64,000 nt of DNA from an uncultured Syntrophomonadaceae bacterium (lineage in GTDB: Bacteria; Bacillota; Dethiobacteria; DTU022): assembly GCA_964464625.1 (NCBI GenBank), contig CAYXKD010000002.1, positions 32,453 to 96,452 of the forward strand, read 5' to 3'. Each line of letters begins with the position of its first letter. Positions within the stretch are counted from its first letter, which is position 1. Under the pieces are notes generated by a model. It was not told the DNA's origin and did no database searches. It was given only the letters and a program-made list of their open reading frames with translations. The position numbers and the translations under genes were made by a program. Shown piece by piece: positions 7,979 to 42,603 of the stretch.

Positions 7979-9604
<1,626 letters not shown>

Positions 9605-11461: not shown

Positions 11462-13246
11462 TTGCCGGAAGGGATGTTTGGCGTGTCGCGAAGCAGGCGC
11501 AGTAAAAATAATCTTGAACAGCTGCTCTTTCTGGTCTGTTTTATTCTGCTGTTGTTAGCCCTTTCCAGAAGCCTGAACCGCTGCCGCAAACATCTTTCCA
11601 GCACGGAGGAAAATACTTTCATCCCACATCATGCCCTCTGTAAAAGAGACGATGAGGCTACTTTCGCCGATCATGAAGATTTGATCTGCTGGCTTCTCCC
11701 CTCCACATTAAAGGTGATCGAACCATCCCACTCAGGTGATGGAGAGTTGAATATTACACCCGGCATCACCATACAAAATGATGGCTCCGCCGGGTTTCTC
11801 TATGCTGCTCGCGGAGAATACGAATCGATCCAGCTGGTACTATACACAGATGGGGAAATCGCTCATCTGCCTGTCCAGTATCTACCCGCCGGCACAAAGC
11901 CCCTTCCTGAAGACTGGGTTAATATTTACCGGGTGCTCACAGTGAACACCCCGGGTGTTGCCAAGTGGGGCTTTCCCGAAAACAAACCGGAAAGACGCTG
12001 TACAGCCTATCCTGATCCGCTGCTGCCGCTTCAGGGGGCGCTCAGCCTTGAGCCCGGTGAATTTAAAGTTCTCTGGCTGAGCATCAATGTCCCCTGTAAC
12101 GCCGTCAGCGGTGAATATACTGGAGAGATATCGCTGGGAGGCGCCAGGGTGCCGCTGCACTTGAAGGTGTGGCCCTTTGCCATCCCCGGGGCCTCCACTT
12201 TGCGTACTGCCTTCGGATTGGGTGGAAAGGGATTTGCCAGCCACCACCAGGTAGCATACCGGTCAGACGAATACCAGGAAATATACCGCCTTTACTATGA
12301 TGCGCTGCTTGATTACAGGATAAATGCCTATCATCTCCCCTACGGCGGCGGGGGAGCGGGGGGATCCCTTCTCGATCCCAGGGCCAGGCCTTATCTAAAA
12401 GACGAAAGGGTGGGCGCATTTATCGGCTATTACCATCAAAATGAAGCCCTTATGGCAGAAACATGGGCTTATCTTGAGCAGCAGGGTGTCTTAGAGAAAG
12501 CCTGGATCTTTAACCTTGATGAACCGCTCACAGAGAAGGATTACTCCACCATCGAGAAACAGGCTGCTTACCTGGATAGGCTTATCCCAGAGATCCCCTA
12601 TGGAGTGACCTTTCATACCGGCCCGCCGTGGGATCAACAGAGTTCACCTTTTGATTACCTCAGTTCCTCGGTAGACCGTTGGATAATCCAGACCAATTAT
12701 TTTGTCCAGGGGCGGGGAAGAGAAGAAAGTTTTAAAGAACAGCTTGGCCAGGCTTATGAAGATGGAGATGAAGTCTGGCTCTATGTGTCTCTGGCCCCCC
12801 GCGAACCTTACTGCAACCTGCTGCTAAACAATGCAGCGCTGCAGCACCGCCTCTTACCATGGCAATGTTACAGTGCCGGTATTGTCAGCGGTTTCTTATA
12901 CTGGCAAACCACCTTCTGGGAGGAGACCTCCGATCCCTACAATGATCAGGCAACTGTGAAAAAACACGATCCCCATCTCTACGGTGACGGCTCCCTCTTT
13001 TACCCCGGCGCAGCAGTGGGTATGAACGGCCCGGTAGGCTCAATCCGGCTGCATAACCTGAGGGACGGACTGGAGGATTATGAATATTTGGTGCTGGCCG
13101 AGCAGGCCTTCGGCCGTGCCGAAACAATGGAACTTGTTGAGGCGATAAGCCCCTCCTTCGGCAATTACATCGAAGACCCTTTTCTTTTTGAAACAGTGAG
13201 ACAGAGCCTTGGGGAGAAGCTCTCCCGCTATTACGGCGGCGGCTAG
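11462..13246 (+). CDS. DUF4091-domain protein (GH123-like putative glycoside hydrolase), with N-terminal signal/TM
   Basis: 594 aa, TTG start with RBS. C-terminal blocks IFNLDEP, VWLYV, GDGSLFYPG and GSIRLHNLRDGLEDYEYL match the DUF4091/GH123 pattern as recalled. Confidence 0.5.
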   Translation: MPEGMFGVSRSRRSKNNLEQLLFLVCFILLLLALSRSLNRCRKHLSSTEENTFIPHHALCKRDDEATFADHEDLICWLLPSTLKVIEPSHSGDGELNITPGITIQNDGSAGFLYAARGEYESIQLVLYTDGEIAHLPVQYLPAGTKPLPEDWVNIYRVLTVNTPGVAKWGFPENKPERRCTAYPDPLLPLQGALSLEPGEFKVLWLSINVPCNAVSGEYTGEISLGGARVPLHLKVWPFAIPGASTLRTAFGLGGKGFASHHQVAYRSDEYQEIYRLYYDALLDYRINAYHLPYGGGGAGGSLLDPRARPYLKDERVGAFIGYYHQNEALMAETWAYLEQQGVLEKAWIFNLDEPLTEKDYSTIEKQAAYLDRLIPEIPYGVTFHTGPPWDQQSSPFDYLSSSVDRWIIQTNYFVQGRGREESFKEQLGQAYEDGDEVWLYVSLAPREPYCNLLLNNAALQHRLLPWQCYSAGIVSGFLYWQTTFWEETSDPYNDQATVKKHDPHLYGDGSLFYPGAAVGMNGPVGSIRLHNLRDGLEDYEYLVLAEQAFGRAETMELVEAISPSFGNYIEDPFLFETVRQSLGEKLSRYYGGG

Positions 13247-16414: not shown

Positions 16415-17830
16415 TCACTTAATGATAACGTTCTCTCTTCTGGCAAGATTCTCCGGCACTACTCCCCTAAAAACATTACTACTGGGTCTATATGTTAATG
16501 GTTCATCGTGACCCTTAATAAAAACACTATGTTTTTCCGGTTCATGTATTATTACGATTACCAAACGTTCACCAGGTAGGACTGGCGCTCCATCCTCAGG
16601 ACCCAATGACTGAAAACTAATTAATGGATCTACTGGATCCACCGGCTTCGGATCTTTAGGCGGCTCCTGGGGAGCAGCCGGTGTCCCGGGTGACGGCGCC
16701 GGCTCCTCTTTCTTAGGTTTCTGTGCAGTGCTGTCCTTTTCCGTTGCCTTTGTCTTCGGCTTTTCAACCGGGTGCTCTTCCCCGCCCACCATCGCCTTGA
16801 TCCCCCCGGCCAGCTCCACCTTGCCGGGCTTCTGCTCAATAGCAACGCCGGACACGTTGATCTTGACATGCCCGATGGAACCGCTGCCGGTGACCTCACC
16901 GGCGCCGTTAAACTCCATATATTCGGCCGCTGCCCCTTCTGGCAGGTGGATCATCACGGTTCCCTCCGAAGGATCTACAAACAGTGCATCCATATTGCCT
17001 GCAGCAAACTCAAGAAAGATCCCCAGTCCGGCGGCGCTGATTTTCTCCACATTGCCGGAAATCTTGCACAGTCCCGGGGAGTTAATAGTAATCTCTAAGA
17101 TTGTACCCTCGCCGGACAGCTCCAAAGGTGCCCCCGGCAGCAGCGATTCGATGCTCACCCCGTCTTTCAGATCGATAAGAGCATCTTCCGCCTCTTTACC
17201 GGTGCAGAGGCTCTTCACCAGACCCGCCAGGAATGTAACCCTTGCTTCCGGTTCGGTCACGCAAACAGTTTCAAAATCCCCTTCAAGCTCAATTTCCGCC
17301 GCAGTTTCTATGTAAATTTCACCGACCCGCCCCTCACCGGAAAGAGCGCTCGCTGAAAGGGAGGATTCGCCCAGAATGGTGATCTTCTTCACAACGGTGT
17401 TCCCCTTAAGAACAACCCGCACCTTACCCCCTTCCCTGTTGATCACCAGATGGTTGATCGTCGCATCTTCAAAGACCACGGTATCTTCGCCGCCGCCCTG
17501 GACCATTACAGTATCTTCCACCACAACCCTGACCAGATCCACACAACCATCCCCGATGGCTGCCGTTAGAATAAGGTCATCTGTAACCCTGGTGTTCTGC
17601 AGTGTTACCCCGGGGGCAGTGATCATCAATGGGCCCTCCACTACTTCCATATCTAAGGGCCCATATGTACCTGGTTCTCTAATCTCCTTAAGCTGCTGCC
17701 AGCCCAGCACCTGGTCTACCCTGCTTCTACCGCCGGGACTGATTAATAAATAGAGGTTCAGGCAAAGTGATAATATCAGGAAAATATAGATGAACGGCGA
17801 ATAATTAAATTGTGTCTTTTTTTTGCGCAT
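16415..17830 (-). CDS. Membrane-anchored beta-strand-rich protein with a Pro/acidic C-terminal tail. Paralog 1 of a tandem pair, possibly DUF4097/LiaG-like.
   Basis: Start moved to the second in-frame ATG (MRKKKTQFNYSP...), which has an AAGGAGAGG RBS. It has a KR-rich N-terminus plus TM. The ~300-aa conserved core (QLKEIREPGTYGP...ISGNVEKISAAG...) is ~60% identical to the downstream paralog. The tail is P/E/K-rich. Confidence 0.6.
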   Translation of the reverse strand: MRKKKTQFNYSPFIYIFLILSLCLNLYLLISPGGRSRVDQVLGWQQLKEIREPGTYGPLDMEVVEGPLMITAPGVTLQNTRVTDDLILTAAIGDGCVDLVRVVVEDTVMVQGGGEDTVVFEDATINHLVINREGGKVRVVLKGNTVVKKITILGESSLSASALSGEGRVGEIYIETAAEIELEGDFETVCVTEPEARVTFLAGLVKSLCTGKEAEDALIDLKDGVSIESLLPGAPLELSGEGTILEITINSPGLCKISGNVEKISAAGLGIFLEFAAGNMDALFVDPSEGTVMIHLPEGAAAEYMEFNGAGEVTGSGSIGHVKINVSGVAIEQKPGKVELAGGIKAMVGGEEHPVEKPKTKATEKDSTAQKPKKEEPAPSPGTPAAPQEPPKDPKPVDPVDPLISFQSLGPEDGAPVLPGERLVIVIIHEPEKHSVFIKGHDEPLTYRPSSNVFRGVVPENLARRENVIIK

Positions 17831-17870
17831 GGCTTTTGCCCTCTCCTTAGAATTGGTCAGATCCATCCTT

Positions 17871-18036: not shown

Positions 18037-19359
18037 TCACTCACCCTCATCCTGTTCTCCACCCTCATCATCGTCCCCATTAGTAGGAGGGGGGTCATTA
18101 TCCCCGGAATCTCCCGATCCGTCACCCTGGGAATTCTCATCCCCATTGTCGGGTTCGGGCGGGGGCCAGTATTCATCAGGATCGGGGCTTTCCGGGGGCG
18201 GCGCGGGTGGCGGACTTTCCGGCGCCGCTGGAGCCGGCTTCTGCTGCGCAGTTCCCTTACCCGTTGTTTCCTTATCCGAATCTTCATCGCCCAGATCCTC
18301 GCCGGCTACCACCGCCTTGATCCCCTCTGCCAGTTCAACTTTGCCGGGCTTCTGCTCAATAACAACACCGGACACATTGATCCTGACCTGCTCAATAGAA
18401 CCGCCTCCGGTGACCTCGGCAGCTCCGTTAAATTCCATATATTTAACCGCGACAGCTTCCGCCAGTTGAATCATCACCGTACCTTCCGTGGGATCCACAG
18501 GATCCACAACAACTGTATCGAAATTGCCCGACGCAAAATCAAGAATTACCCCCGCTTCGCCGGCACTTATCTTTTCCACGTTACCGGAAATTTTGCAAAG
18601 ACCCGGAGAGAGCACCGTAATTACTTTGATTGTTCCCTCACCTGACAGCTCCAGGGGCGCTCCAACCTCCAGCAACTCGATGACAACCCCATCTTTCAGA
18701 TCGATAAGAGCATCTTCAGCGTCTTTACCGGTGCGAAGACTTTCCACCTCTCCCTTTAAAATTGTCACCTTCGCCTCAGATGTCTTCACGCAAAGAGTAG
18801 CAAAGTCTCCCTCAAGCTCAACTTCCGCCGGAGTCTCCACTGAGAGTTCACCTACCCGGCCCTTACCGGAAAGACCTGCAGTACAAAGGGAAGCCCCCTC
18901 CAAGATGGTAATTTTCCGCACAATGGTATCTCCCTTGAGGACAACGCGCACCCTGCCATCAACCCTGTTGATCACTAGATGGTTGATATCGGCATCCTCA
19001 AACAGCACCGTCTCTTCTCCGCCGCCCTGGACCAGAGCGGAATTCTCCACAATCACATTAACCAGATCAACAGAGCCGTCACCAATGGCTGCTGTAAGGA
19101 TGAGGTCCTCTGTAACCCTGGTGTTCTGCAAAGTAACCCCCGGTGCACTGATCCTTAACGGTCCCTTCACAACTTCCATATCTGAAGGGCCGTACGTACC
19201 CGGCTCCCAGATTTCTCTGAGCTGCTGCCAACTCAGCACCTGCGCCTCCCCGTTTTGATTATAAAATTTGATTATGAAATAGGTATTCAGGCAAAGAGAT
19301 AAAATCAGGAAGATTTGGAGCAACATCGAGTAATTAAATACAAACTTTCTTTTTCGCAT
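18037..19359 (-). CDS. Membrane-anchored beta-strand-rich protein with an acidic Pro-rich tail. Paralog 2 of the tandem pair.
   Basis: Start at the second ATG (MRKRKFVFNYS...) with a GGGAGAAGGAAAG RBS. The core is homologous to paralog 1. The C-terminal tail is E/D/P/G-rich. Confidence 0.6.
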   Translation of the reverse strand: MRKRKFVFNYSMLLQIFLILSLCLNTYFIIKFYNQNGEAQVLSWQQLREIWEPGTYGPSDMEVVKGPLRISAPGVTLQNTRVTEDLILTAAIGDGSVDLVNVIVENSALVQGGGEETVLFEDADINHLVINRVDGRVRVVLKGDTIVRKITILEGASLCTAGLSGKGRVGELSVETPAEVELEGDFATLCVKTSEAKVTILKGEVESLRTGKDAEDALIDLKDGVVIELLEVGAPLELSGEGTIKVITVLSPGLCKISGNVEKISAGEAGVILDFASGNFDTVVVDPVDPTEGTVMIQLAEAVAVKYMEFNGAAEVTGGGSIEQVRINVSGVVIEQKPGKVELAEGIKAVVAGEDLGDEDSDKETTGKGTAQQKPAPAAPESPPPAPPPESPDPDEYWPPPEPDNGDENSQGDGSGDSGDNDPPPTNGDDDEGGEQDEGE

Positions 19360-19584
19360 AACTCTTTCCTTCTCCCTGGAAGTATCAGAATCCTCCCAGC
19401 AAATATTAGACATTTCCAGAAAGATCCCTGCATTTTCTTAAAATGTTACTCGATTTTGACTTCAAAGTCCTTGTCATATATGAGAGCGCACATTGACTCG
19501 ATTTTATGACAAAGCTAACATATGATGTTTTGGAAAAAGCGGCACCTCTTTTGGGGTGTTCTGTGGAATACTTAACTGATGAAG

Positions 19585-21870: not shown

Positions 21871-21908
21871 GTTTATTTGTAAAAACTAGCTTTTCAAGAC
21901 CTGACCCC
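21871..21908. repeat. 38-bp direct repeat, copy A (left boundary)
   Basis: GTTTATTTGTAAAAACTAGCTTTTCAAGACCTGACCCC is 36/38 identical to 59402-59439, with weaker similarity for ~10 more bp. It overlaps the 3' end of the ComK-like ORF. Confidence 0.8.
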
Positions 21909-22472
21909 ATTTGAGGTTCCTGTAACAAGAGAACAAACAAGCTTCTCCAGAAATTCTTTGTACTCTTCTGTGGAGGCCTGGGAGGCGATAGAGCCCGGCA
22001 TCAGGGTGCTGCAGTGTTTTTCCAGAGCAATGGTACCGTCGCGCAGACGCTTCCGGACAGTCTTCAATGTGTAATAACAGGGCAGCCTGTACTCCCCCGA
22101 AAGGATAATTAGCGAAGGGCAATCGCCCTGCTCCTCTTTGGACAGCCTCAACTCTACCACAGCATTGGGGTTCAGATAACTGTGGCATCCATCGTTTTTC
22201 CCCACTGCCCGCCTTGTTTTTACCGGCACCAGGACCAGCGCAGGTGAAAGGGGCAGCGGCAGCCCCTGCCGGTAATGGAAATATTCCCCCTGGTTCCGGC
22301 GGACCGCCTCCAGGTCGACGCTGAAATGCCTTGCCAGCCGGCGCAGGTTCCACTTTATGGTACGCTTATCCTGAAAAACATCCCCCTTTTCAGTGATGAT
22401 TAATGTGCCGTTGCCGCCCTCCTCATCATAAACAGGAACCAGAGCGGCCAGACAATCTCTCCATCGCTCCAT
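21894..22472 (-). CDS. ComK-family-like protein (putative competence-type transcription factor). Weak assignment.
   Basis: 192 aa. The size and conserved-looking blocks (ALVPVYDE, GEYFHYRQG, VLVPVKTRRAVGKN) are reminiscent of the ComK family. This rests on pattern recall only. Confidence 0.35.
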   Translation of the reverse strand: MERWRDCLAALVPVYDEEGGNGTLIITEKGDVFQDKRTIKWNLRRLARHFSVDLEAVRRNQGEYFHYRQGLPLPLSPALVLVPVKTRRAVGKNDGCHSYLNPNAVVELRLSKEEQGDCPSLIILSGEYRLPCYYTLKTVRKRLRDGTIALEKHCSTLMPGSIASQASTEEYKEFLEKLVCSLVTGTSNGVRS

Positions 22473-22585: not shown

Positions 22586-22630
22586 CAAAGTTAGTAAACT
22601 TGGTGCCAGGCACCAAGTTTACTAACTTTG
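22586..22630. repeat. 35-bp perfect palindrome, copy 1 (extended to 45 bp by flanks), upstream of hsp20
   Basis: caaag-TTAGTAAACTTGGTGCCAGGCACCAAGTTTACTAA-ctttg. The core is 22591-22625, 86 nt upstream of the hsp20 ATG. Confidence 0.85.
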
Positions 22631-22710
22631 CTGTTTGGGGCTATTTTACAGGGATACCGGGGCTTTGGCTGGTCTAAAATAAGGGTAAATCAATGCCGGG
22701 AGGTTTTTTT

Positions 22711-23130
22711 ATGTCCATGATACCCCGCGAACCGTTCCGCTATATTGAAGGCGCCCGCCGTGAAATGGAGCGCTTTTTCGGCTCCACCCTTTTCCGGGAG
22801 GAGCCCAGGATCGACATCTATGAAAAAGAGAACGAGGTAATCGCTTCCTGCGAAATGCCGGGACTGAAGAGCAAGGATGATCTCACCATCGAAATTAATG
22901 AGAACATACTCAGCCTGAACGGCACGATCAAGCAGGAGCATGAGATCAGGGAGGAAAATGTGCACCGCCAGGAGCGCTACTGGGGCAGTTTCCGCCGCAG
23001 CATCAACCTGCCCGCCCCGGTGCTTGCTGAAAAATCACGGGCAAGCTACCGCAACGGCATTCTGGAGATCACCATGCCGAAAGCAGATCCGCAACCGCGC
23101 CGGAAAAATATCCAGGTCGTTTTTCACTAG
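22711..23130 (+). CDS. Hsp20/alpha-crystallin family small heat shock protein
   Basis: Start at ATG 22711 (MSMIPREPF...) with a GGGAGG RBS at 7-nt spacing. Alpha-crystallin domain blocks (IDIYEKENEVIASCEMPGL, GILEITMPK) are present. Confidence 0.85.
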   Translation: MSMIPREPFRYIEGARREMERFFGSTLFREEPRIDIYEKENEVIASCEMPGLKSKDDLTIEINENILSLNGTIKQEHEIREENVHRQERYWGSFRRSINLPAPVLAEKSRASYRNGILEITMPKADPQPRRKNIQVVFH

Positions 23131-23143
23131 CGAAAGGGAAGGG

Positions 23144-23184
23144 AAATTAGTAAACTTGGTGCCTGGCACCAAGTTTACTAATTT
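23144..23184. repeat. 35-bp perfect palindrome, copy 2, between convergent hsp20 and LCP genes. Likely a bidirectional terminator.
   Basis: aaa-TTAGTAAACTTGGTGCCTGGCACCAAGTTTACTAA-ttt (core 23147-23181). The LCP gene stop codon (23178-23180) lies inside the right arm. Confidence 0.85.
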
Positions 23185-24425
23185 TCTTCTTCTGATGCGT
23201 CGTTTTCGTCGGGGGGTGGGTCGTTTTCCTCACCGGGGGGCGCAGGTGTTTCGCTGTCAGGATCGGGATCGTCGTCACCGTCGGGGTCGGTATCGTCTCC
23301 CGGGGTTTCCGGGGGATCATCCTCTACCGGCCCGGGCTTATCATCAATATCGTCGCCGGGATCCAGCTCCAGCGGGGGTATGTATTCATCGATCTCCCAT
23401 TCATCACCGGCCGGCAGCGGCGCCATGCCGGGACCGGGCAGTGTGATCTGCTCCCTGGCGGGAACATCCACACCGAATACCTTTTTGATGAGCTCCACCC
23501 TGGATTGCTCATTTATGACCACATAGGATATATTTAGCCCGTTTCGCGGGGCATACTGCCCGCTGCCCGTAAATACATCCATGCTGATGTCCTCCGCCTT
23601 GACCCTGAGCCCGAAAAGGGCCAGCTGGGCTATCTGCGCCGCATTCAGATTGGTCTCCACATTGTTCTGGACAGACCTGTACATCGCAGGGATATCCCTG
23701 AGTTTTCCCCTCTCCTTGATCTGCCTGAAAGCCTCCACCAGCACCTCCTGCTGTCGGGAAGCCCTGCCGAAATCACCGCCAATGCTGCGGTCGCGCACAA
23801 ATGTCAGGAATTTTTCGCCGTCAAGAAGCTGGTAGCCCTGATCAAGCAGAAGGGCTCCCCGCCCAAAATCGGCTCTGACAGGATGTTTCACATCAAAATA
23901 GACGCCGCCCACCCGATCAACCACTTCCCTGGCTCCATCCATATCCACGATTACATGGCAGTTGACAGGTATACCGCCCAGAAATTCCTCAACAGTTCTA
24001 ATGACGGTATTGACGCCGCTTTGATGTTTATCCGTAACCCCGGCCATATTATAGCCATACATATAGGAATGATTGATCTTGTCATATATCTCTGTCCCCG
24101 CTATCTTCACATAGCTGTCCCGGGGAATGCTCACCAGTGAAACACTCCGCTCCTTTAAATCCAGGGAGGCAATCATGATCGTATCGGGGCGAAAAATGGA
24201 ATAGACACTCTCCCTCCCGGCATCGCGGTCAAAGCCGAGCAGGAGAATATTCACACGATTGGGAGTGATACTTTCAGTGGCGGAAGCATCGCTCCAGCCA
24301 CTGCCGCCGCTGCTTTTGAAAAGGAGTGCCGGAAAACAGAAATAAGCAGTTGAAAAGGCAATCACCGCAATGAGCAAAGCCAGGAAAGCTGTTTGTCTCA
24401 CCAGGGATCGTTTCTTTTTTTTCAT
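23178..24425 (-). CDS. LytR-CpsA-Psr (LCP) family glycopolymer-peptidoglycan ligase with an acidic Pro-rich C-terminal tail
   Basis: 415 aa. N-terminal TM. LCP core blocks NILLLGFDRD, DTIMIASLDL, LVSIPRDSYV and FLTFVRDR. The C-terminus is D/P/E-rich low complexity. Confidence 0.85.
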   Translation of the reverse strand: MKKKKRSLVRQTAFLALLIAVIAFSTAYFCFPALLFKSSGGSGWSDASATESITPNRVNILLLGFDRDAGRESVYSIFRPDTIMIASLDLKERSVSLVSIPRDSYVKIAGTEIYDKINHSYMYGYNMAGVTDKHQSGVNTVIRTVEEFLGGIPVNCHVIVDMDGAREVVDRVGGVYFDVKHPVRADFGRGALLLDQGYQLLDGEKFLTFVRDRSIGGDFGRASRQQEVLVEAFRQIKERGKLRDIPAMYRSVQNNVETNLNAAQIAQLALFGLRVKAEDISMDVFTGSGQYAPRNGLNISYVVINEQSRVELIKKVFGVDVPAREQITLPGPGMAPLPAGDEWEIDEYIPPLELDPGDDIDDKPGPVEDDPPETPGDDTDPDGDDDPDPDSETPAPPGEENDPPPDENDASEEEN

Positions 24426-24619
24426 TATTCACAACACCCTAACATTCCTTAGAATTTGCCTCCAGAACAAATTATAACGGCATTGCGAAAAATGTCAAAT
24501 AAGGGCCTCCTGCAATTATTTCCTTTTGCAGAAAGCCCTGTTATGCCCCTGTGGGGCAGCATCAAAATATGCTGCGATATTAAAACATGCCTGCGGGATA
24601 GTTTAAGGAAAAACCTTCT

Positions 24620-25588
24620 TCAATTCATTTCAGGGAAAAAAACCTCTTTTATGATCTGCCAGTTGGCTTCATCGTCCAGAATAAGCCGCTCTTCATCATC
24701 GCCTTCAATATACTCACCCTGCAGGGTATAATCGTCCACAGAGTTGATGTCCAGATGCTCGCGGGCAAAGACAACAAGTGAAATGATCTGATTTAGCTGC
24801 AAATCCGTATCCAGACTATCCTGGTACGCATGGTAAGTGGGAAGTACCTGGCGAAAGCGCCCCATCTTTTTAAAATGGCTCAGTGTCGCCAGAAGCAGCT
24901 TCTTCTGCCTCTCTATCCTCATCAAATCATCCCTGCTGTCAGAGTCCAGGTAAGTAAGGTATTGCATGTAGGCGCGCCCGTCAAGCAGCTGCGGGCCCAC
25001 ATAAAGATCCTCTGCAGGGGTTGGCCCGGGAATAAAGATATCAACATCAAATTCCACCCCTCCCATGGAATCGATGAGCTGCTCAAAGCCCTTCATATCA
25101 ACAGCAATATAGTAATGCAGGTTCACTCTCTTCAAAAGGGACTCCACGGTTTCAAGAATGCAATTAATCCCCTGCCGGTAATTCTTACCATCTCCATTCC
25201 CGCTGCCCAGCCTGTAAGCAAATTGAAGGCGCTCCCACCTGTTTTTTCCTGCTATCTTCACATAGGAATCGCGGGGGATGCTCAGCAGCGTTAAAGAGTC
25301 CCGGTCAAAATTAATAGAGGCAACCATAATCGTATCGGCCCGGTAGCCACTCTCACTGTCTCCATCATCAAGATCCCACCCCAGGCCGAGAATGGCTATA
25401 TTTACGATTCGCTCACCAAAATATTTCCCCGGTTCACCCATAGCATCAAAATCTTCCCGGAAAAGATGGGCCGGATCAAAGAATACGCGATAGATCCCCA
25501 CACCGATAATAGCCACCGAAACAACCAGGATCGTTGACACCACGGCGAGTGAGAAATAGATTTTTTCTTTTCTGGATAACTTTCGCAA
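24620..25588 (-). CDS. LCP family protein (second paralog)
   Basis: 322 aa. TM plus NIAILGLG, DTIMVASINFDRDSLTLLSIPRDSYV and YLTYLDSDSRDDLMRIERQ motifs. Confidence 0.85.
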   Translation of the reverse strand: MRKLSRKEKIYFSLAVVSTILVVSVAIIGVGIYRVFFDPAHLFREDFDAMGEPGKYFGERIVNIAILGLGWDLDDGDSESGYRADTIMVASINFDRDSLTLLSIPRDSYVKIAGKNRWERLQFAYRLGSGNGDGKNYRQGINCILETVESLLKRVNLHYYIAVDMKGFEQLIDSMGGVEFDVDIFIPGPTPAEDLYVGPQLLDGRAYMQYLTYLDSDSRDDLMRIERQKKLLLATLSHFKKMGRFRQVLPTYHAYQDSLDTDLQLNQIISLVVFAREHLDINSVDDYTLQGEYIEGDDEERLILDDEANWQIIKEVFFPEMN

Positions 25589-25618
25589 ATTTCAGCCCCC
25601 TTTCACCCTATGCAGGCG

Positions 25619-27397
25619 CTACCATATTCTATTCAGTTCATAAAGGGTAGCCTCCTCATAGATACCCCTGATTTCAGGAGGGTGATAATCGCCTTCCGCC
25701 AATCCCCATACCTTTAAAAGCTCATACAACACCTGCGAATAGGATTCGTTCACTACAACAAACACTCTTTTGCAATGATAGGATACATCCCATAAATATG
25801 AACTTGACAGCCCTTTTTCTCTCAGGTAGTACTCCAGGATTGCGTCTGAAGGAGCCGTAGCAAGGATACAGTCGCCCTCTTGCAACAGGGGCGCTACTGT
25901 TTCAACAATGGCCGGAGCATCTCTCAGGGAACCGGTCTCATTGGAATAGTAAATCTCCTTCGACCCCAAAAGCTGAATAGTGAGCATTGCCGACAGAGCC
26001 ACCACTATAATAGCACAGACTGGGCCTTTATAACGAAGATTCTTAATCCTGCTCTGCTCTAAGAGATAATCCAATCCCGCCGCAACGGCTATAAAGAAGA
26101 AAAAGGCCCAGAAAATCCATGTCCGCGGCGGCGATGCCGCTCTCTGGATCAGCAGTAAGGGCAGAGGCGCAATCACCGCTGAAAGAAGCAGCAAGTTTAG
26201 CTTTCGATAAAAGATTACAGAGACCAGCGCCGCCGCAGCCAGTATTAGCTGCAACGCCGTCGGGATATCTCTCATTAACTGGCAGACCACTGCCAGAACA
26301 GTGTTTGGCCAGAGACGGCTCAAAGCAACCCAGCTTCGAGGCAGAACATAGGGGTTGGCTGCCAGCGCCTCCCATCCCGAAAGGATCAAAACCGGCAGGT
26401 AAAGTATAAACGTAATCAGTGCGATTAACAACAATGAACCAAAAAGCTCCTTCAGCCTGGAGAACCGCCGGGGATTATCTTTTTCCAGGACAATAGAGAA
26501 AAACAACCAGCAGAACACTATGCTCAAGGGATAGAGCATTACCGGGACAGTGTACAACCCCAGCGCAGCAAATAAGGCCAGGAGCACCCAGAGAAAGCGG
26601 TTATTGCTCTTCTGCAGATGCGAAGCCACGTAGAGAACGCAGAGAAAAAGAAAAACCATGAGCGTATAGCCCCTGGCATTTACAGAGTACTCCACAAGAA
26701 TGGATGAAGAGGCGGCCAGCCCTGCAGCGATGAGAGCGGCATTGGCATTAACGAGGCGCCGCACCACGGCATAGGATGCCGGGATAATCAAAACGCCGGA
26801 TATAAAAGCCGGCAGCCGGAAAGCCCAGGGTGCACCGCCGAAAATCAGGTATGCGCAACGCATCAGCAGGGAATGCAGGATATGGTTGTTAGGGGTGGCG
26901 TAGAACGAAGCTGCCGCTAAAGCGGGGCGTAAGGCATTGCATAAGAAACTGCCGGCCTCATCAAATTTAAGAGGCACCTTCAGATAATAGAGCCGCACCA
27001 GGAAACCCAATAGCAGGAGCAGCAGCAGGGTAACATAGTGCACTCTCTCTCTTTGAAAAGCCAGCTTTAAAGAGCGCTGCTTAAGTTTGCCGCTCAACAG
27101 TTTCGCAGAAATGATCACATCCCTAAAATAGATATTGATCCTTTTTCTGGCCAGATAAAGCAGGATTGCGCCCAGAAGGGCGGCTCCCCCGAAAAGTTTC
27201 AGGCGTCCCGAGATTATATGGTACCATGATTCGCTGAATATGGAAGCATCCCCGCTCGCGGCAAAGGCATCCAATTTGCTTTTTACAAGATCATAGGGGA
27301 TAAAAGCGCCCGCGATCAAAAAGGTGCCGCCCAGAAACAGCAAAAGCACCAGTATCCAGGTGAAACAGCGAAAAGGTTTATCACTGGAAGAAAGCAT
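25619..27397 (-). CDS. GT-C fold glycosyltransferase, family 39 / ArnT-PMT-like (YkcB-like)
   Basis: 592 aa polytopic membrane protein. The first extracytoplasmic-loop region (YYLKVPLKFDEAGSF...) matches the PMT_2/ArnT family pattern. Confidence 0.6.
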   Translation of the reverse strand: MLSSSDKPFRCFTWILVLLLFLGGTFLIAGAFIPYDLVKSKLDAFAASGDASIFSESWYHIISGRLKLFGGAALLGAILLYLARKRINIYFRDVIISAKLLSGKLKQRSLKLAFQRERVHYVTLLLLLLLGFLVRLYYLKVPLKFDEAGSFLCNALRPALAAASFYATPNNHILHSLLMRCAYLIFGGAPWAFRLPAFISGVLIIPASYAVVRRLVNANAALIAAGLAASSSILVEYSVNARGYTLMVFLFLCVLYVASHLQKSNNRFLWVLLALFAALGLYTVPVMLYPLSIVFCWLFFSIVLEKDNPRRFSRLKELFGSLLLIALITFILYLPVLILSGWEALAANPYVLPRSWVALSRLWPNTVLAVVCQLMRDIPTALQLILAAAALVSVIFYRKLNLLLLSAVIAPLPLLLIQRAASPPRTWIFWAFFFFIAVAAGLDYLLEQSRIKNLRYKGPVCAIIVVALSAMLTIQLLGSKEIYYSNETGSLRDAPAIVETVAPLLQEGDCILATAPSDAILEYYLREKGLSSSYLWDVSYHCKRVFVVVNESYSQVLYELLKVWGLAEGDYHPPEIRGIYEEATLYELNRIW

Positions 27398-27424
27398 TTT
27401 CAGCTCCCCCTAAAGGAAAAGTAT

Positions 27425-29866
27425 TCAGGAATAATCCGCCGGCTGGTAGAAAATCCTATCTGGATAATTTTTCTTAAAGCTGTTTTTAAAGAGGGCAAAG
27501 GGCGACAGGGCCGCATCCCTTGCCAGGGCCATGCCCCCTCCCCTGACTCCCGCTGTGTTGCCCCTGAAAAGATTGCCCGAGATCTCCAGCACTGAGCGCC
27601 ATGCGGAGATCCCGCCCCCGTACACCTCGGCAATATTGCCCTCGATAGTATTACCGGTCAATACGGGCGAAGCGGCCACAATATTGATCCCGCCGCCATG
27701 AACCGCCTTATTCTTGAAAATGTAGTTGTCCAGTATTGAAGGTTTCCCCCCCAGACTGACAGCCATGCCGCCGCCCATCTTTGCCTCATTGGCCTCGATG
27801 CGGTTGCCCTCCACAGCAGGATCCGCAAGTATACAACAGATCCCTCCTCCCTCGATGAGAGCGCTGTTACCCGCAATGGTATTGGCGATGAGGTGAGGCG
27901 CCGCCTCCAGAACGGCGACCCCTCCACCGTACCCGGGAACCTTGCCCTCGCCGGAATCTGTTGTATTGTTTTCGATAATGTTATTGGAGATTACCGGACT
28001 GCTCCCTTTCGCAACGAGAATGCCGCCCCCGAAACAACCCATAAACTCTTCCACCACCGTTCCCTGCCCTCCGGTAATGGTAAAACCGGCCAGAAGAGCA
28101 CCCTCCCCCTCACCATTGCAAAAGGAAACAACCGATCTTTCCCCTGCGCCCTGAATGATGGTATGGCTGACAACTTCGGGATCTTCAGGATCGCTGCTCT
28201 GCACCGCAACCTCTTTGCCCATGAAGTCGATATTCTCTACGTAAATACCGGGACTCACAATGATCCTCTCCCCATTCAGGGAAGCCTCAATGGCCTTCTG
28301 GATGCTGCTGTATTCGCCGGGAACCAGTTTCTGCCCCCCTGAAAGTTCCCGATCCTTTTCGCCCAGATCATAAAGATAGATAAAAGCATTCTGGGAGCAA
28401 TAAATATCGAGCAGCTCTCCTATTTGATCAAGATGCCCGGTGAACATTTCTCCTTCCCCAGGCACAACATGGGAGAAGAAAAACCAGATCCGCCCCTTTC
28501 CGACCATCTCATCCAGTTCATCAAGATACAACTGGCGGTTTCCCCTATAATTTCCCCCGGGTATATAAGAAACCTCCTGATTGTATGTGTAATACTCAAA
28601 AACCTTGAATGACTCGTGATAAACATAGATTTCATCGCCAGCCTGCTTATTATCAAAATAGTACTCTATAACGGGCCTGGACTCTTCATTCAGGCGCGGT
28701 TTTACCAGGTGATAAGCGCTGCGTAGCGCCGGTATGGAAAATATGACAACGGCCAAAACGACTGCAGTCACAGCGCTGCGGCGAAAAAGAGCGGCGCCAA
28801 CATGGTAAAGCCCTTCCCCGATGACCAGGTAAAACAGAGGCATGGTAAACAATACCATCCTGTCTGCAATGGGATAGAAACGCATCGCCGACAGTGCCGC
28901 CAGCACCGCCAGCGGCAGCAGGATCAGCCCCAGCACAAAGCGTTCCTTTCTTGATTTCCACAGCATTGCGACCCCCGCGGTGATGATCACAAGAAGCAGG
29001 GCTGCATGGGGAATGCTGAACCCCAGGGGATTGCAAAACAGCTTGATTGCCGCCTGGGGATACCAGGCCAGCTGACTCAGTGAAACGGGAGGAAAAGGAA
29101 TAAAATCATTCTCGAAAAATATATAGAAAGCTCCATTATTTGATGCCGGGCCGGCAATGTAATGATAGCTGATGGCAAAGCTTACGCCCCAGAAAAGGGC
29201 CATGGTTCCAAGTTTCACCATCACCGCTGTGATTTTTTCCTTCTGCTCCCTCAAGGCAAAGATAAAGAGAACAATGCCTGTACCGGCCAGGATAAAGACA
29301 GAGGAATAAGCGCACCAGATCGCCAGGCTGCCGGCAATGGTGAATATGATTGTTTCCCTCAAAGCGTAGCGGCGCCTGTAAAGGTTCTCCGCCAGCAGTA
29401 GAATGACAATGGTGATAAGCAGCTCCAGGCTGTACTGCTTAGCCTCATTGGAATAGTAAATGGCACGGTCTGCCAGCACCAACAAAGCCAGAGCCGGCGG
29501 CAGCGCTTTGGGGCCAAGGAATCTCTCTGCCATTTTCACAAAAAGAAAGAGAGCGGCAATCCCGGACAGTAAAGGGATAAGCCTGAGAATATACTCGCTA
29601 TATCCAAAGAGCTCTGTAAGCAATTTTGTAAGCAGGAGATAGAGAGGCGGCGCAGCCTGCACATTGTCAAGAGGTGAAAGCAGCTCCAGGTATCCCCGCT
29701 CCAGTATATTCATCACCAGCAGAGACTCGTCAAACCAGATGGAGCGGTTGGATAGGTATTGAAGAAGACGCGTCACTATCCCGTAACCGAGAAGTACCCA
29801 GATAAGGACGCGGGAATAATAAATCCTCCGCAAAACCGGCAAAACCGGCAAAACCCTCTCTTTCAA
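27425..29866 (-). CDS. Fusion protein: N-terminal GT-C (GT39/ArnT-like) membrane glycosyltransferase domain plus C-terminal right-handed parallel beta-helix (pectin-lyase/NosD-like) domain
   Basis: 813 aa, TTG start. The N-terminal ~480 aa is multi-TM with a PMT_2-like loop (WFDESLLVMNI...). The C-terminal ~300 aa carries repeated GGG(I/M/V)xxxxSxxxIxxN(T/I) beta-helix turns. A 9-bp tandem repeat encodes (VLP)3 near the N-terminus. Confidence 0.6.
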   Translation of the reverse strand: MKERVLPVLPVLRRIYYSRVLIWVLLGYGIVTRLLQYLSNRSIWFDESLLVMNILERGYLELLSPLDNVQAAPPLYLLLTKLLTELFGYSEYILRLIPLLSGIAALFLFVKMAERFLGPKALPPALALLVLADRAIYYSNEAKQYSLELLITIVILLLAENLYRRRYALRETIIFTIAGSLAIWCAYSSVFILAGTGIVLFIFALREQKEKITAVMVKLGTMALFWGVSFAISYHYIAGPASNNGAFYIFFENDFIPFPPVSLSQLAWYPQAAIKLFCNPLGFSIPHAALLLVIITAGVAMLWKSRKERFVLGLILLPLAVLAALSAMRFYPIADRMVLFTMPLFYLVIGEGLYHVGAALFRRSAVTAVVLAVVIFSIPALRSAYHLVKPRLNEESRPVIEYYFDNKQAGDEIYVYHESFKVFEYYTYNQEVSYIPGGNYRGNRQLYLDELDEMVGKGRIWFFFSHVVPGEGEMFTGHLDQIGELLDIYCSQNAFIYLYDLGEKDRELSGGQKLVPGEYSSIQKAIEASLNGERIIVSPGIYVENIDFMGKEVAVQSSDPEDPEVVSHTIIQGAGERSVVSFCNGEGEGALLAGFTITGGQGTVVEEFMGCFGGGILVAKGSSPVISNNIIENNTTDSGEGKVPGYGGGVAVLEAAPHLIANTIAGNSALIEGGGICCILADPAVEGNRIEANEAKMGGGMAVSLGGKPSILDNYIFKNKAVHGGGINIVAASPVLTGNTIEGNIAEVYGGGISAWRSVLEISGNLFRGNTAGVRGGGMALARDAALSPFALFKNSFKKNYPDRIFYQPADYS

Positions 29867-29884
29867 AACAATCCGCCTCCCCAG

Positions 29885-29923
29885 AATTAGTAAACTTGGT
29901 GCCTGGCACCAAGTTTACTAATT
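29885..29923. repeat. 35-bp perfect palindrome, copy 3, at the junction of gtrA-like and the GT-C fusion gene
   Basis: aa-TTAGTAAACTTGGTGCCTGGCACCAAGTTTACTAA-tt (core 29887-29921). The GtrA-like stop codon (29918-29920) is inside the right arm, at the same relative position as in copy 2. Confidence 0.85.
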
Positions 29924-30343
29924 GAAGATGAATTTTTTGCGGGAGAAGTAGTTCCAGAAGAATACGATTCCTGTGGCGGCGACTTTTGAGATCATGTAGT
30001 GCACCTGGAAAATAGAGACAAAGAGATAGAGAAAGAACTCGTTAAAAAGCAGCCCGATGAGGCTGACAAAGAATACCAGGCCTATCTCGAGGTATCTGGT
30101 GTGGCGGCCGCTGCTGAAAACACATTTTATCGAAAGTACATAGTTCACCGCTGTGGAGAAAATGAATGAGAGCGCCGCTGCAAGCAGGTAGTGCATCGCT
30201 CCGTATTTTACCAGGGCCCAGTAGAGCAGCCAGTCGACAAGCGCCGCTGTGGCTCCGACGAAGAAATATTTAATCAGTTGTGTCAGGTTAACCTGTTTTT
30301 CCAGGAAAAGGGCAACTGCGCCTTTTTCTGCGCTGTTATGCAT
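29918..30343 (-). CDS. GtrA-family protein (small polyprenyl-phosphate-sugar flippase-like membrane protein)
   Basis: 141 aa, 4 TM. KYFFVGATAALVDWLLYWAL is the GtrA-family signature region. Confidence 0.8.
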   Translation of the reverse strand: MHNSAEKGAVALFLEKQVNLTQLIKYFFVGATAALVDWLLYWALVKYGAMHYLLAAALSFIFSTAVNYVLSIKCVFSSGRHTRYLEIGLVFFVSLIGLLFNEFFLYLFVSIFQVHYMISKVAATGIVFFWNYFSRKKFIFN

Positions 30344-39407: not shown

Positions 39408-40268
39408 TTAAATTCCTTCCTTTTTACCTTTTTTGATCCCATAATTGCTCACAAATACCCAGAGCAGGCCAAAGAGCAGCCCCAGAACAGCCGAAGCAAA
39501 AATCACCAGGAGCAGCCGCGGCGGCTCCCTCTTCTCGGGCTGGTAAAGAGGGGTAAAATGCTTCTCAAAATACTCGTTATCATGTTTGCGCAGCTCAGAA
39601 ATATATTTTCTCGTATCTGTAATCTCTTTTGTCAGAGTCTTTTTTTCCAGGTAGAGATCTTTAATCATGGGGTCAACATCTAGAAAAACATTGAGAGCGC
39701 CCTCCTTCTCCTCGCTGAGCAGCCTGAGCCACTGCCGGTAGAGATTATCATAATAACGGGCAATGAACTTATCATCCATAAGATCATCGATAACCGTTAT
39801 CCGCTTCTCCTTGAGCCTGATGGACTCCCTCAGGTTGGCAATCCGTTCATCCCGGGATTCTCTCAGCGTTTGCAGGCCCATCTCGGTCCCGATCTCGGTA
39901 ACAGAGGCGGCGTCGCTGCCTATATAGCCAAGGTGCACCATCTTTTTATCCTCATCAATGGCAATGGAAAGATGGCGGTTAATCTCCGCCACAGCCTCAG
40001 GTGAGGAATCCACCACCAACTTCCGGCAGACCTGTTTCACCACAGTGCGGCGGATGAGAATCTCGTAATTTTCCACCTTTACCCCATCATATGGGATTGA
40101 AATGCTCGTCTGGATACTGTACTTTGCCGGAGCCAGCAAATAGATTGCCGGAGCGACGGCGATGGCGAAGATTGCGCCAATAAGCAAAATTTTGTTTCTG
40201 GAACGCATGATCAAATCCCAGATCCCTTGAAGTGTGAGCCGCTCCATAACTTGTTTAACCCCCTTCAA
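39408..40268 (-). CDS. Wzz-like chain-length determinant / polysaccharide co-polymerase (tentative)
   Basis: 286 aa. N-terminal TM and C-terminal TM flank a coiled-coil-rich extracytoplasmic region. Placement next to the priming transferase supports this call. Confidence 0.45.
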   Translation of the reverse strand: MKGVKQVMERLTLQGIWDLIMRSRNKILLIGAIFAIAVAPAIYLLAPAKYSIQTSISIPYDGVKVENYEILIRRTVVKQVCRKLVVDSSPEAVAEINRHLSIAIDEDKKMVHLGYIGSDAASVTEIGTEMGLQTLRESRDERIANLRESIRLKEKRITVIDDLMDDKFIARYYDNLYRQWLRLLSEEKEGALNVFLDVDPMIKDLYLEKKTLTKEITDTRKYISELRKHDNEYFEKHFTPLYQPEKREPPRLLLVIFASAVLGLLFGLLWVFVSNYGIKKGKKEGI

Positions 40269-40280
40269 TGCTTTAAATAA

Positions 40281-41321
40281 TCAAGAACCGCCCTCCCGGG
40301 CAGCGCTCTCCACCCGCCTGTAACGGGGAATAAACGGAGGATAAGCGCCCCACCCCGATAAAGCCTGTATGACCGTGCCCAGGTGAACCAGGTAAAAATA
40401 CCACCTTTTTTGAACTGCAAAGTAGAGCGCCAGGAGACCGTTAATCACCAGGGGCAGCGGTTTCCAGATAAAAAACCCGGGCACCGAAAGCAGCAGGGCG
40501 CCGAAAACCAAAAAAGGTCCGGGATAGAAACGGATGAAGTTCCCCAGATTCTTCTGCCTCAGCCGTGACCGGAGAAGCTGGTTCGGACCCGGGTAGGCCC
40601 CCTTTTTCATCCAGGGCCAAAAATTCCGCTCCAGCTTCTTCTTCAGGGGAAGCAGGGCGGTATAGTGATCCGCCATGGGCAGGGGCAGCGCCCGGATATG
40701 AAAGCCGAGGCCCCGGATCCGGCTGTACAGATCGATCTCCTCAAGCATGGATACAGCAGGATTCCAGTTTCCGGCCTGCAGCACAAGCTCCCGCAAATAG
40801 AGCACAGCACCCCCGTGGTAATCAGCGGCTTTTCCCCAGGGCCCCTCCCTGCCGGAGAAGAGAGCCGGCAGGCAGACATTGTCCACAGTGGAAACAATAT
40901 CGCCCTGCTCATCCATGAAGTGGCTGCGGGTCTTCCCCACAAAACCGGCTGCCTGCGCCGGCAGATCCCCCTCTTCTTCCCTGAGCCGCTCCAGAAAGGA
41001 ATAAAACTCCCTCTGTAAAACCATATCCCCGTCAAGGTAGAGGACCCATTTGCCTTTAGCCTCCAGGGTGCCCGCATACCTTCCCGAGGCGGGGCAGAGC
41101 AGGGGATCCTCCTCCAAAGAGTAGACCTTTATGCCGTGCTCCAGGGCAATTTCCACACTCCCGTCGGTAGAGAGGGAATCCACAAAGATGCGCTCCACAT
41201 CTCCGCCGCCGGGCAGCGACTGGAAAAGAGAGGGCAGCGTCTTCCCCTCATTGCGGCCGATCACCACAATGGAGAGCCATACCGGCCCGCCCCGCTCAGC
41301 AGGGCCTCTGCTGCTCTGCAC
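40281..41321 (-). CDS. GT2 family glycosyltransferase with C-terminal TM helices
   Basis: 346 aa. LSIVVIGRNEG...DSLSTDGS...YLDGDM (DxD) motifs. It overlaps the upstream gene by ~26 nt. Confidence 0.6.
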   Translation of the reverse strand: MQSSRGPAERGGPVWLSIVVIGRNEGKTLPSLFQSLPGGGDVERIFVDSLSTDGSVEIALEHGIKVYSLEEDPLLCPASGRYAGTLEAKGKWVLYLDGDMVLQREFYSFLERLREEEGDLPAQAAGFVGKTRSHFMDEQGDIVSTVDNVCLPALFSGREGPWGKAADYHGGAVLYLRELVLQAGNWNPAVSMLEEIDLYSRIRGLGFHIRALPLPMADHYTALLPLKKKLERNFWPWMKKGAYPGPNQLLRSRLRQKNLGNFIRFYPGPFLVFGALLLSVPGFFIWKPLPLVINGLLALYFAVQKRWYFYLVHLGTVIQALSGWGAYPPFIPRYRRVESAAREGGS

Positions 41322-42603
41322 AGCCCACCGCCCCCCTTTCGACCTGCCCTGCAGCGCCCCGCTCCCTTAAAAAACGGTACAGGGAGAGATAGAGCCCTGT
41401 AAAGAAGATAAATGTGAAATTCGTGGGCAGGATATGGTTAAAAAGGCTGGGGATGGAGGCGCAAAAAGCGACAATGAAAAGCATCTTCAGTAACCTGTAT
41501 TCCCGCAGGCCAATAATATTTTGGCAATAGATGCGGCGCCCCTGCCACAGCGGAAAGAGCAGGACCGCGGCAAGGGTCGCCAGAAGGGCGAGCCCCAAAA
41601 CATAGCCGAATTCAAAGAGATACTCGATGATAAAATTATGGGGGAAAATAGAGAGAAAAACATGAGAGGGCCAGGCTTCGGCACCGTAACCGAAAAGAAA
41701 ATTGAAAAGCTTCCCCCTGAAAAGAAGCTGCAAACCCTCTGAAACCATGCTTGCCCGGCCGGCATCCCCGCCCATAAGGCCGCTAAAACGCAGGGAAAAG
41801 TAATCGTATTTGCTTAAAAATATGGCCAGCACCGCCAGAGCCAGCACCATGGAGATATAATAAATATTTTTCAGGCGCCTCTCCAGGTGGCGGAAGAGGA
41901 GCAGCCAGAAGAGAAAAATCCCCAAAGCCAGCATGACAAAGCCGCCCCGCGAACCGCTCCAGACAAGCAGGGAAAGCATGATCCCGATGCAGGCAAAGCA
42001 TATCAGTTTTAACGAGGTGGCGATGTTTTCAAAAAATATAATAAAAAAGAGCACCAAAATGACCACAACGACATTCTTGGCAAACTCATTGGGATCGCTC
42101 ATCATTCCCTGCGCGCGGTAATAAGGGGTCAGCGTAAGCATTGAGCCTGTTGTGTAGTAACTGTAAAGCTGCTGATAGGACAGCAGGGGGATCGCCGCCA
42201 GGCAAACCAGGTAGGCCATCCTCATCACAGCCTTCTCATCCAGAGAGAGAAAATAGAATAATAAGAGCAGAAAATGCATCGTTGCATAGGAAATAACCTT
42301 CAGGGCCCACAAAGCCGCCGGAGCAGAGGAATAGAAATAAGAGAGCCCCATCAGCGCGGTAACAAAGAGCACCCAGAGCAGCATGGAAAGCTCCCCACCG
42401 CTTAAAAGCGGCCGGCGGAACGGCCTGATTCCGGCGGATCTGCCGCCGAAGAAAAAAGCTATCGCAAAGACAAGGGCGGTGCAAAAAGCAACAGCGGCAA
42501 AGAGATAGCTGAAATTTATAGTATCATGCCAGATGCTCCCCCTGAGGGCAAATGTGGGGATAAATGCCAGGGCAAGAAGCAGGGCCGCTGCATTCTTCTT
42601 CAC
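41296..42603 (-). CDS. O-antigen ligase / Wzy-type polymerase family membrane protein (Wzy_C domain)
   Basis: 435 aa with ~10-12 TM. A large loop with arginine-rich conserved blocks is typical of the O-antigen ligase/polymerase family. Confidence 0.7.
   Translation of the reverse strand: MKKNAAALLLALAFIPTFALRGSIWHDTINFSYLFAAVAFCTALVFAIAFFFGGRSAGIRPFRRPLLSGGELSMLLWVLFVTALMGLSYFYSSAPAALWALKVISYATMHFLLLLFYFLSLDEKAVMRMAYLVCLAAIPLLSYQQLYSYYTTGSMLTLTPYYRAQGMMSDPNEFAKNVVVVILVLFFIIFFENIATSLKLICFACIGIMLSLLVWSGSRGGFVMLALGIFLFWLLLFRHLERRLKNIYYISMVLALAVLAIFLSKYDYFSLRFSGLMGGDAGRASMVSEGLQLLFRGKLFNFLFGYGAEAWPSHVFLSIFPHNFIIEYLFEFGYVLGLALLATLAAVLLFPLWQGRRIYCQNIIGLREYRLLKMLFIVAFCASIPSLFNHILPTNFTFIFFTGLYLSLYRFLRERGAAGQVERGAVGCAEQQRPC

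Follow-up and report, generated by a model that had tools for sequence, protein, structure and literature searches.

A dispersed family of perfectly palindromic, REP-like hairpins at gene ends in an uncultured Syntrophomonadaceae bacterium

We report that three copies of a 35-bp perfect palindrome, TTAGTAAACTTGGTGCC-W-GGCACCAAGTTTACTAA (W being A or T), found in a 64-kb stretch of DNA from an uncultured Syntrophomonadaceae bacterium (contig CAYXKD010000002.1; the whole stretch is called the window below), are members of a genome-wide, dispersed family of hairpins that resemble repetitive extragenic palindromes (REPs), and are not a local oddity. Their shape and placement suggest that the elements are most likely compact two-way transcript-end signals at gene ends, where they often supply the stop codon. 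Of the options raised in an earlier note on this DNA, that of a REP-like family is the right one; the idea that two of the copies delimit the small heat-shock gene hsp20 as a cassette is not supported.

Dispersal of the element and its fit to gene ends

Metagenomes were scanned with the inner 27 nt of the palindrome, requiring an exact match at 26 specified bases, so that the apparent uniformity of the copies recovered is inflated. The scan returned 19 copies on 16 contigs (retrieved loci carry L numbers throughout), and every contig came from a single whole-genome shotgun set, MTBK01. One of them, L040, corresponds to the hsp20-LCP region of the window itself, with 54 differences over 6834 bp (99.2% identity). 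The other 15, which hold 17 of the 19 copies, are similar to the window only in the element itself, which bears out the suggestion of a repeat family like REPs or bacterial interspersed mosaic elements (BIMEs). The neighbours of these copies are unrelated housekeeping genes: rsmD-like, nucleoside transporter and aminomutase genes, mcmA/mcmB, selB, ruvB, hom, dtd/hisS-aspS, fpg, and miaB-like, DAHP synthase and prolidase-like genes. A protein 99% identical to the methylmalonyl-CoA mutase beside the L029 copy is encoded on a 98,591-bp contig, and the contig carrying the window's LCP gene is likewise 98,591 bp long, which indicates that at least the L029 mcmA/mcmB locus belongs to the same species as the window. 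In this species 16 of 22 copies equal the 35-bp master, a figure biased upward by the search pattern, and the master sequence may be written approximately as AAAG-TTAGTAAACTTGGTGCC-W-GGCACCAAGTTTACTAA-CTTT. Copies mostly stand alone, with doublets 25-70 bp apart in L003, L004, L014, L020, L032 and L039.

The three copies in the window and the genes that they touch are as follows.

22586-22630: copy 1, 45-bp perfect palindrome; core 22591-22625, centre A at 22608
23144-23184: copy 2, 41-bp perfect palindrome; core 23147-23181, centre T
29885-29923: copy 3, 39-bp perfect palindrome; core 29887-29921, centre T
22711-23130, plus strand: hsp20, 139 aa from the ATG at 22711; longest open reading frame (ORF) from 22693; Pfam HSP20, E = 5e-18
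23178-23180, minus strand: TAG stop of the LCP gene (23178-24425), within the right arm of copy 2 at element positions 2-4, followed by an in-frame TAA
29918-29920, minus strand: TAG stop of the GtrA-like gene (29918-30343), matching the LCP stop in element position
29876-29882, minus strand: Shine-Dalgarno-like GGGGAGG, 2 nt past the foot of copy 3, of the 813-aa gene, which starts with the TTG at 29866

As the earlier note had it, the cores beginning at 22591, 23147 and 29887 differ at the centre base alone; the pairing runs further than it claimed, to 45, 41 and 39 bp. One hundred shuffles gave no match to the 35-bp palindrome, and no other, diverged or half copy was found in the 64 kb beyond these three. 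Copies 1 and 2 do flank a small heat-shock gene, by its Pfam match. Copy 1 lies between the 5' ends of hsp20 and a 192-aa gene (21894-22472, minus strand), about 45 nt upstream of a -10-like TAAAAT (22675-22680) of hsp20 that is conserved in the alignment with L053 and L049. Its centre base is A in the window and T in L040. Copy 2 separates the convergent hsp20 (stop 13-16 nt upstream) and LCP genes, and is followed on the plus strand by TTTTCTTCTTC. Copy 3 occupies the gap that separates the GtrA-like gene from the gene for an 813-aa beta-helix membrane protein (27425-29866, minus strand) in an operon-like string. When folded as RNA in an 81-nt context, each copy gave about -30 to -41 kcal/mol with z-scores of -6 to -8; the 43-nt consensus folded as DNA gave -20 kcal/mol.

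The LCP and GtrA-like stops are both the TAG of the minus-strand element end, T-TAG-TAA. Their shared position, correctly noticed beforehand, is a family-wide property and not the chance of two genes. Across all hairpin families there are 35 sides that face a gene; on 27 of them an ORF of at least 90 codons terminates inside the perfect palindrome or no more than 7 nt away from it. The 17 metagenome copies at other loci usually have a stop codon at 0-9 nt or within the copy, and sometimes stand 0-5 nt before the next ribosome-binding site. In the window-type family the built-in TAG ends six genes, including both convergent genes of L027. Stops beside window-type copies are TAG in 12 cases, TAA in 5 and TGA in none, against 18, 13 and 18 for the window's 49 genes; this skew towards TAG implies that the element, or its insertion preference, supplies the stop. 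Between co-directional genes the other foot of the hairpin lies 0-5 nt ahead of a Shine-Dalgarno sequence (window copy 3, the mcmA/mcmB junction of L029, L026 and L008). The centre base, read in the sense of the adjoining gene, is A in nine cases and T in four, which offers no usable bias.

Several loci show arrangements worth recording separately. In L008, from a Syntrophomonas metagenome-assembled genome (MAG), positions 6915-7010 comprise a terminator (GTCAGGGGA...TCCTGAC plus nine T), 5 nt, the related element and then the ribosome-binding site of the next gene; the terminator sits after an MBL-fold hydrolase gene, itself after relA and dtd, and in the window's species the copy of L037 abuts dtd. 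In L026 (3565-3940) two copies 341 bp apart surround a 77-aa ORF (3660-3893, minus strand) with EKGLEKG repeats, whose ribosome-binding site directly follows the palindrome and whose only Pfam match, Yae1_N (E = 3e-4), is under the gathering score; it is, after hsp20, the second small gene found between two copies. When all flanks were compared with one another, a short module, ATGATCC(C/G)GCTGATCA..., appeared beside three copies (L038 35-70, L039 35-58 and L026 3941-3965), a hint of composite, BIME-like mosaics in part of the family. Bare GGCACC and GGTGCC hexamers cluster at 4-5-nt spacing near full copies (e.g. GGCACC-CGAAC-GGTGCC-CGAAC...GGCACC), or a second short palindrome, GCGGTGCCAGGCACCGC, is present; such loci are L004 7462-7550, L033 7171-7200 and L003 1058-1100, and they may be decayed copies or a protein-binding array. 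Finally, L038 and L039 start inside a copy, and in L060 the mcmA/mcmB spacer (11684-11780) consists of about 97 N; the palindromes seem to be places where assemblies break.

The window combines a cell-envelope polysaccharide region with groEL, and its closest named relatives are Dethiobacteria MAGs. Positions 20664-63903 are mostly one large cell-envelope glycan locus with three LCP paralogues, GT2, GT4 and GT-C enzymes, a heparinase II/III-like protein, a C-methyltransferase, Wzz, a sortase and flippases. Conserved proteins without a Pfam match are encoded at 16415-17866, 18037-19413, 21894-22472, 39408-40268, 41296-42603 and 58544-59308.

Orthologous sites, symmetry and other taxa

Loci of related species were retrieved through homologues of the window's LCP and McmA proteins, and hairpins were found at the corresponding junctions. 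At the gtrA junction L047 (LCP 71% identical) reads TAA followed directly by TTACTCCCCCCTGGTGCC-A-GGCACCTGGGGGGAGTAA, and L049 (LCP 66% identical) has the imperfect GTTAGTTAACCTGGTGCC-A-GGCAC-TGGGTTACTAAC. At the mcmA/mcmB junction L059 (McmA 93% identical) has AATTACTTACACCGGTGCC-T-GGCACCGTGTAAGTAATT, and in L061 (McmA 86% identical) a 54-aa ORF is inserted between two related copies that are slightly imperfect. In L053, with the gene order of the window, only the unextended GGTGCC-C-GGCACC is left between LCP and hsp20, and the copy on the upstream side of hsp20 is decayed and interrupted. These orthologous hairpins have in common a 13-nt apex, GGTGCC-W-GGCACC (GGTGCCWGGCACC), and their lower stems differ or are decayed. 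Hairpins with the same apex at orthologous sites imply that the sites are old. As read from these alignments, the apex is invariant across the related species and the lower stems are species-specific.

The same loci bear on hsp20. Orthologues of the 139-aa protein are encoded convergently to LCP in L049, L053 and L058, and no element was found at that place in L049, L057 or L058, where hsp20 is convergent to LCP all the same; L058 has an ordinary GC hairpin instead. In L047, L052 and L055 hsp20 is not beside LCP, and the whole downstream neighbourhood differs there. The remnants at both positions in L053 imply that the hsp20 arrangement is old and vertical. The earlier note had described a unit of about 560 bp around hsp20, bounded by identical palindromes, had named a recombination site among the options for them, and had proposed looking for variable presence of hsp20 in relatives. 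That comparison speaks against a unit that is mobile or bounded by recombination sites: the hsp20-LCP order is mostly kept without the element, L053 keeps remnants, and no integrase or transposase lies nearby. On gene order, hsp20 is best regarded as a neighbour of the elements and not as a recent cassette or part of a mobile unit.

The symmetry of the hairpins is itself maintained during divergence. In an alignment of 42 copies from all families, in which the core columns are invariant by construction, the four pairs flanking the fixed core vary solely by double, compensatory substitutions, and 84.8% of cells are paired against 25-40% in slid controls. Insertions and deletions are symmetric as well: the second copy of L032 is short of one base in each arm, and in the Bacillota variants the core is set off from TTA...TAA by 0-4 nt, inserted symmetrically. 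These symmetric changes would point to arm-to-arm templating as well as selection. Between the window and L040, five of the 54 differences fall within the 16 nt from the hsp20 stop to copy 2 (23131-23146), where the window's variants lengthen the copy 2 palindrome by 3 bp, and another is the centre of copy 1 (22608). Differences of this kind suggest that the palindromes undergo flipping or templated mutation on a local scale.

When one genome per species was scanned for the 21-bp core, 27 sites turned up at 25 loci in 11 genomes, all of them MAGs; roughly 0.5 sites would have been expected. Chance seems the likely origin of two of these sites, whose centre base is C or G and whose pairing is not extended. 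The remaining ones are extended palindromes with lower stems of their own, save for one gammaproteobacterial contig that has the 21-bp core without extension beside a second, shorter palindrome with the same apex. The lower stem AACTTAATA... is shared by Syntrophomonas, Syntrophomonadaceae and a soil Bacillota MAG; GTTAAC... occurs in a Clostridiales MAG; and GGACG... occurs in three Ilumatobacter MAGs (one with 15 sites at 12 loci), with variants in two other Actinomycetota MAGs. The foot of the Ilumatobacter hairpin also touches TGA, TAA or TAG. Close relatives of the window's species have different bases adjoining the apex, so that identity over 21 bp with distant phyla may mean that apex-defined families are numerous and that a few of them share the four extra bases. 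Apex-headed hairpins are thus found in Dethiobacteria-like Bacillota, Syntrophomonadaceae, Ilumatobacter and other Actinomycetota, and one gammaproteobacterial MAG.

Proposed role and rival explanations

We hold it somewhat better than evenly probable that the elements are REP-like dispersed hairpins that act as two-way terminators or pause sites and protect transcript ends, and that they are kept uniform by copy turnover or gene conversion and symmetric by arm-to-arm templating. Transcription in either direction would yield a long hairpin with a GC-rich apex of 8-9 bp and an A/U-rich base. Like the REPs of Escherichia coli, for which a dual role as partial terminator and mRNA stabiliser is documented (bioRxiv 10.64898/2026.03.23.713779), such a hairpin could serve as a partial two-way terminator and a barrier to exonucleases. 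The upstream cistron would thereby have its 3' end defined and stabilised, and the downstream cistron perhaps its 5' end. Uniformity within a genome combined with divergence between species is accounted for most simply by REPIN-like replicative turnover or by gene conversion among copies; REPINs are known to keep a uniform master sequence and to decay once the mobilising enzyme is lost (bioRxiv 10.1101/2021.07.10.451892). Correction of one arm on the template of the other would keep each copy perfectly palindromic, and the invariant apex would be the likely recognition determinant of a putative trans-acting protein.

A number of observations weigh against this explanation. Termination and stabilisation are read from shape and position alone. 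The earlier note had proposed a bidirectional terminator, and the GC-rich apex and A/U-rich base agree with that proposal; however, a terminator scan was passed only by copy 2 on the plus strand, and not by copies 1 and 3 or by any minus strand, and a clear T-run after the full stem is likewise confined to copy 2 on the plus strand. Should the apex stem alone form, it would be followed by UUUACUAA, as read from the sequence. Copy 1, between two gene starts, has no obvious 3'-end role, nor has the L008 copy, which follows a separate canonical terminator. Since some copies are intercistronic with a ribosome-binding site right behind them, or lie in 5' regions, not all can be efficient terminators. 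The classical GTAG/CGTC tags of REPs are not present in the element, and no RAYT, HUH or other transposase was found in the 64-kb window (about 50 genes) or beside the copies examined. No pair of filled and empty sites was found, so that any mobility is putative. Copy number comes from a metagenome with a 99.2% identical strain. Strong purifying selection on all 35 bp (e.g. by a protein contacting the whole element) could be an alternative source of the identity.

The likeliest of the rivals is that the apex GGTGCC-W-GGCACC is the operator or landing site of a dimeric protein that binds double-stranded DNA, either a regulator or a ParB/parS-like chromosome organiser, the palindromic extension being secondary. 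The apex is invariant and everything else drifts, the apex on its own, 13 bp with no lower stem, survives between LCP and hsp20 in L053, copy 1 is in the hsp20 promoter region, and hexamer clusters adjoin full copies in L004 and L033. We nevertheless judge it unlikely, as the neighbouring genes have no common function, most copies touch stops at 3' ends instead of lying at promoters, and the compensatory changes and symmetric indels of the lower stem argue that pairing itself is maintained.

Less probable still is a miniature inverted-repeat transposable element (MITE), that is, two abutted terminal inverted repeats, or a junction of insertion sequence (IS) ends, moved by a DDE transposase encoded elsewhere. 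A perfect inverted repeat in uniform copies at many loci would fit such an origin, as would the TTA...TAA that bounds the Bacillota variants. Against it, direct target-site duplications were not seen, the flanking bases being inverted complements; it is the centre and not the outer ends that is conserved; the sites are orthologous across species; and there is neither a transposase in the window nor any solo half-site flanking a transposase gene in the retrieved loci. A search for solo half-sites as IS ends likewise gave nothing of substance.

It is highly improbable that hsp20 is an exchangeable cassette between recombination sites of an integron-attC-like or Xer-like kind, formed by copies 1 and 2. 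Identical palindromes do surround one small gene here and, 341 bp apart, the 77-aa ORF of L026, and hsp20 is absent beside LCP in L047, L052 and L055; but where it is absent the entire downstream neighbourhood differs, and where it is convergent to LCP (L049, L053, L057 and L058) the elements are mostly lacking, with decayed remnants in L053. Most copies are solitary, and no attC core sites, integrase or tyrosine recombinase were found nearby. Ordinary intrinsic terminators, similar by chance and forming no repeat family, can scarcely be entertained: they would account for a GC-rich stem at gene ends, A-rich on its 5' side and T-rich on its 3' side, and for copy 2 passing the terminator scan, but identity over 35-43 bp at 20 or more unlinked loci cannot arise independently, many copies lack a T-run, and some stand inside operons right before a ribosome-binding site.

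Returning to the REP-like hairpins, we would put forward, as possible though doubtful, a wider version of this explanation, in which hairpins headed by GGTGCC-W-GGCACC form a widespread, undescribed class of self-correcting palindromes, recognised, copied or homogenised by a conserved, putative hairpin-specific protein and kept at stop/ribosome-binding-site junctions to set transcript ends. If true, the class would be a Gram-positive counterpart of the REPIN-RAYT partnership, with recognition by the apex and not by a foot tag.

The family is a REP-analogous, seemingly long-lived hairpin population in anaerobic Gram-positive lineages, and REPs and their mobilising enzymes are well known from Proteobacteria. 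Its unusual features are perfect two-fold symmetry, built-in tandem stops, an exact fit between stop and ribosome-binding site, and an apex that is invariant across species and possibly phyla. It offers a handle for finding a new hairpin-recognising protein and for studying the concerted evolution of palindromes. Annotation would be affected in that a repeat writes part of the gene ends and terminators of these genomes; for design the element suggests a very compact natural two-way terminator or insulator part. The part most worth following is the invariant apex and the putative factor that recognises it.

Comparison with known systems

Several identities were considered and rejected. Integron attC sites (RYYYAAC...GTTRRRY) differ from the element, whose ends, GTTAGTA...TACTAAC, have the wrong order and composition and pair perfectly, and the window contains no integrase. 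The controlling inverted repeat of chaperone expression (CIRCE; TTAGCACTC-N9-GAGTGCTAA) shares, by scan, only TTAG...CTAA with the palindromes around hsp20. The window's only CIRCE-like repeat, GCAGCACTC-N9-GAGTGCTAA at 9987-10013 with two mismatches, precedes the Cpn60/groEL gene (minus strand, 7979-9598) by a few hundred bp, at a place where groES is expected; the organism probably uses HrcA/CIRCE for groESL, with hsp20 lacking a CIRCE. Readings of the apex as a sigma-54 promoter, as a mimic of tRNA 3' ends or as a restriction site are rejected on the variant sequences.

Database searches gave no known name for the element. In the window no Rfam family reached its gathering score, and by E-value only generic long-hairpin miRNA models appeared, far below the cut-offs. 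A string search of the literature for the apex and core returned only unrelated eukaryotic primer or gene matches, and no paper was found with the accession prefix MTBK01. Viral contigs gave one and five matches to the 19- and 17-nt cores, respectively, in GC-rich or tandem-repeat sequence and with no extended pairing; these look like chance. BLAST against plasmids and phages gave only partial matches of 19-27 nt (E about 0.2-9). The best of these, in a Peptoclostridium acidaminophilum megaplasmid (NZ_CP007453.1, 207073-207091; L054 3001-3019), is a 19-nt exact match to one arm and the apex (GTGCCAGGCACCAAGTTTA), the other arm being absent; this intergenic match, about 1.4 kb from an IS21 transposase gene and with E about 2, is probably chance. 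An origin in phages or plasmids is rejected.

Mycobacterial interspersed repetitive units (MIRUs) are direct tandem units that encode small peptides, and Rickettsia palindromic elements (RPEs) are inserted in frame. Like them, the element is a small repeat that fits between, or overlaps, stop and start signals; unlike it, neither MIRUs nor RPEs are perfect palindromes. In Neisseria and Haemophilus, paired DNA-uptake sequences serve as bidirectional intrinsic terminators. The element shares with bidirectional terminators a GC-rich hairpin, A- and U-rich flanks that pair and a place between convergent genes, and these too can be repeated genome-wide. It differs from them in its identity over the whole 35-43 bp and in that many copies lack a U-run or are intercistronic, and there is no evidence of a role in DNA uptake.

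Closer parallels are found in the REPINs and REPs. The family resembles the REPIN-RAYT system in that the master sequence is uniform within a genome and that copies persist at orthologous sites across species and are decayed in some lineages (bioRxiv 10.1101/2021.07.10.451892); REPINs, however, are doublets of asymmetric REPs that need a single-copy RAYT, whereas the elements are mostly single and symmetric. A survey of REPs describes stems of 5-13 bp, loops of 2-20 nt and a GTAG/CGTC tag, and names Bacillota and Actinomycetota nowhere in its full text (PMC3733652). Like the REPs and BIMEs of Proteobacteria, the elements are short, dispersed extragenic palindromes, mostly downstream of genes in convergent or co-directional order (PMC3733652), with a species-specific consensus, occasional close doublets and a likely role as terminator or mRNA stabiliser (PMC3733652; bioRxiv 10.64898/2026.03.23.713779). 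Dispersal and location downstream of ORFs therefore agree with the classical GTAG/CGTC super-families, but the tag and the length and perfection of the stem do not, and membership is rejected. The flanks of the element are a symmetric AAAG...CTTT with no unpaired GTAG/CGTC tag, and in the Ilumatobacter variant GACG/CGTC is inside the paired stem on both sides. Finally, REP stems are imperfect, whereas the element has perfect arms of 14-23 nt around one centre base, with symmetric stems of 17-23 bp, is conserved at the apex and not at the foot, has stop codons built into its ends, and is hosted by Bacillota and Actinomycetota.

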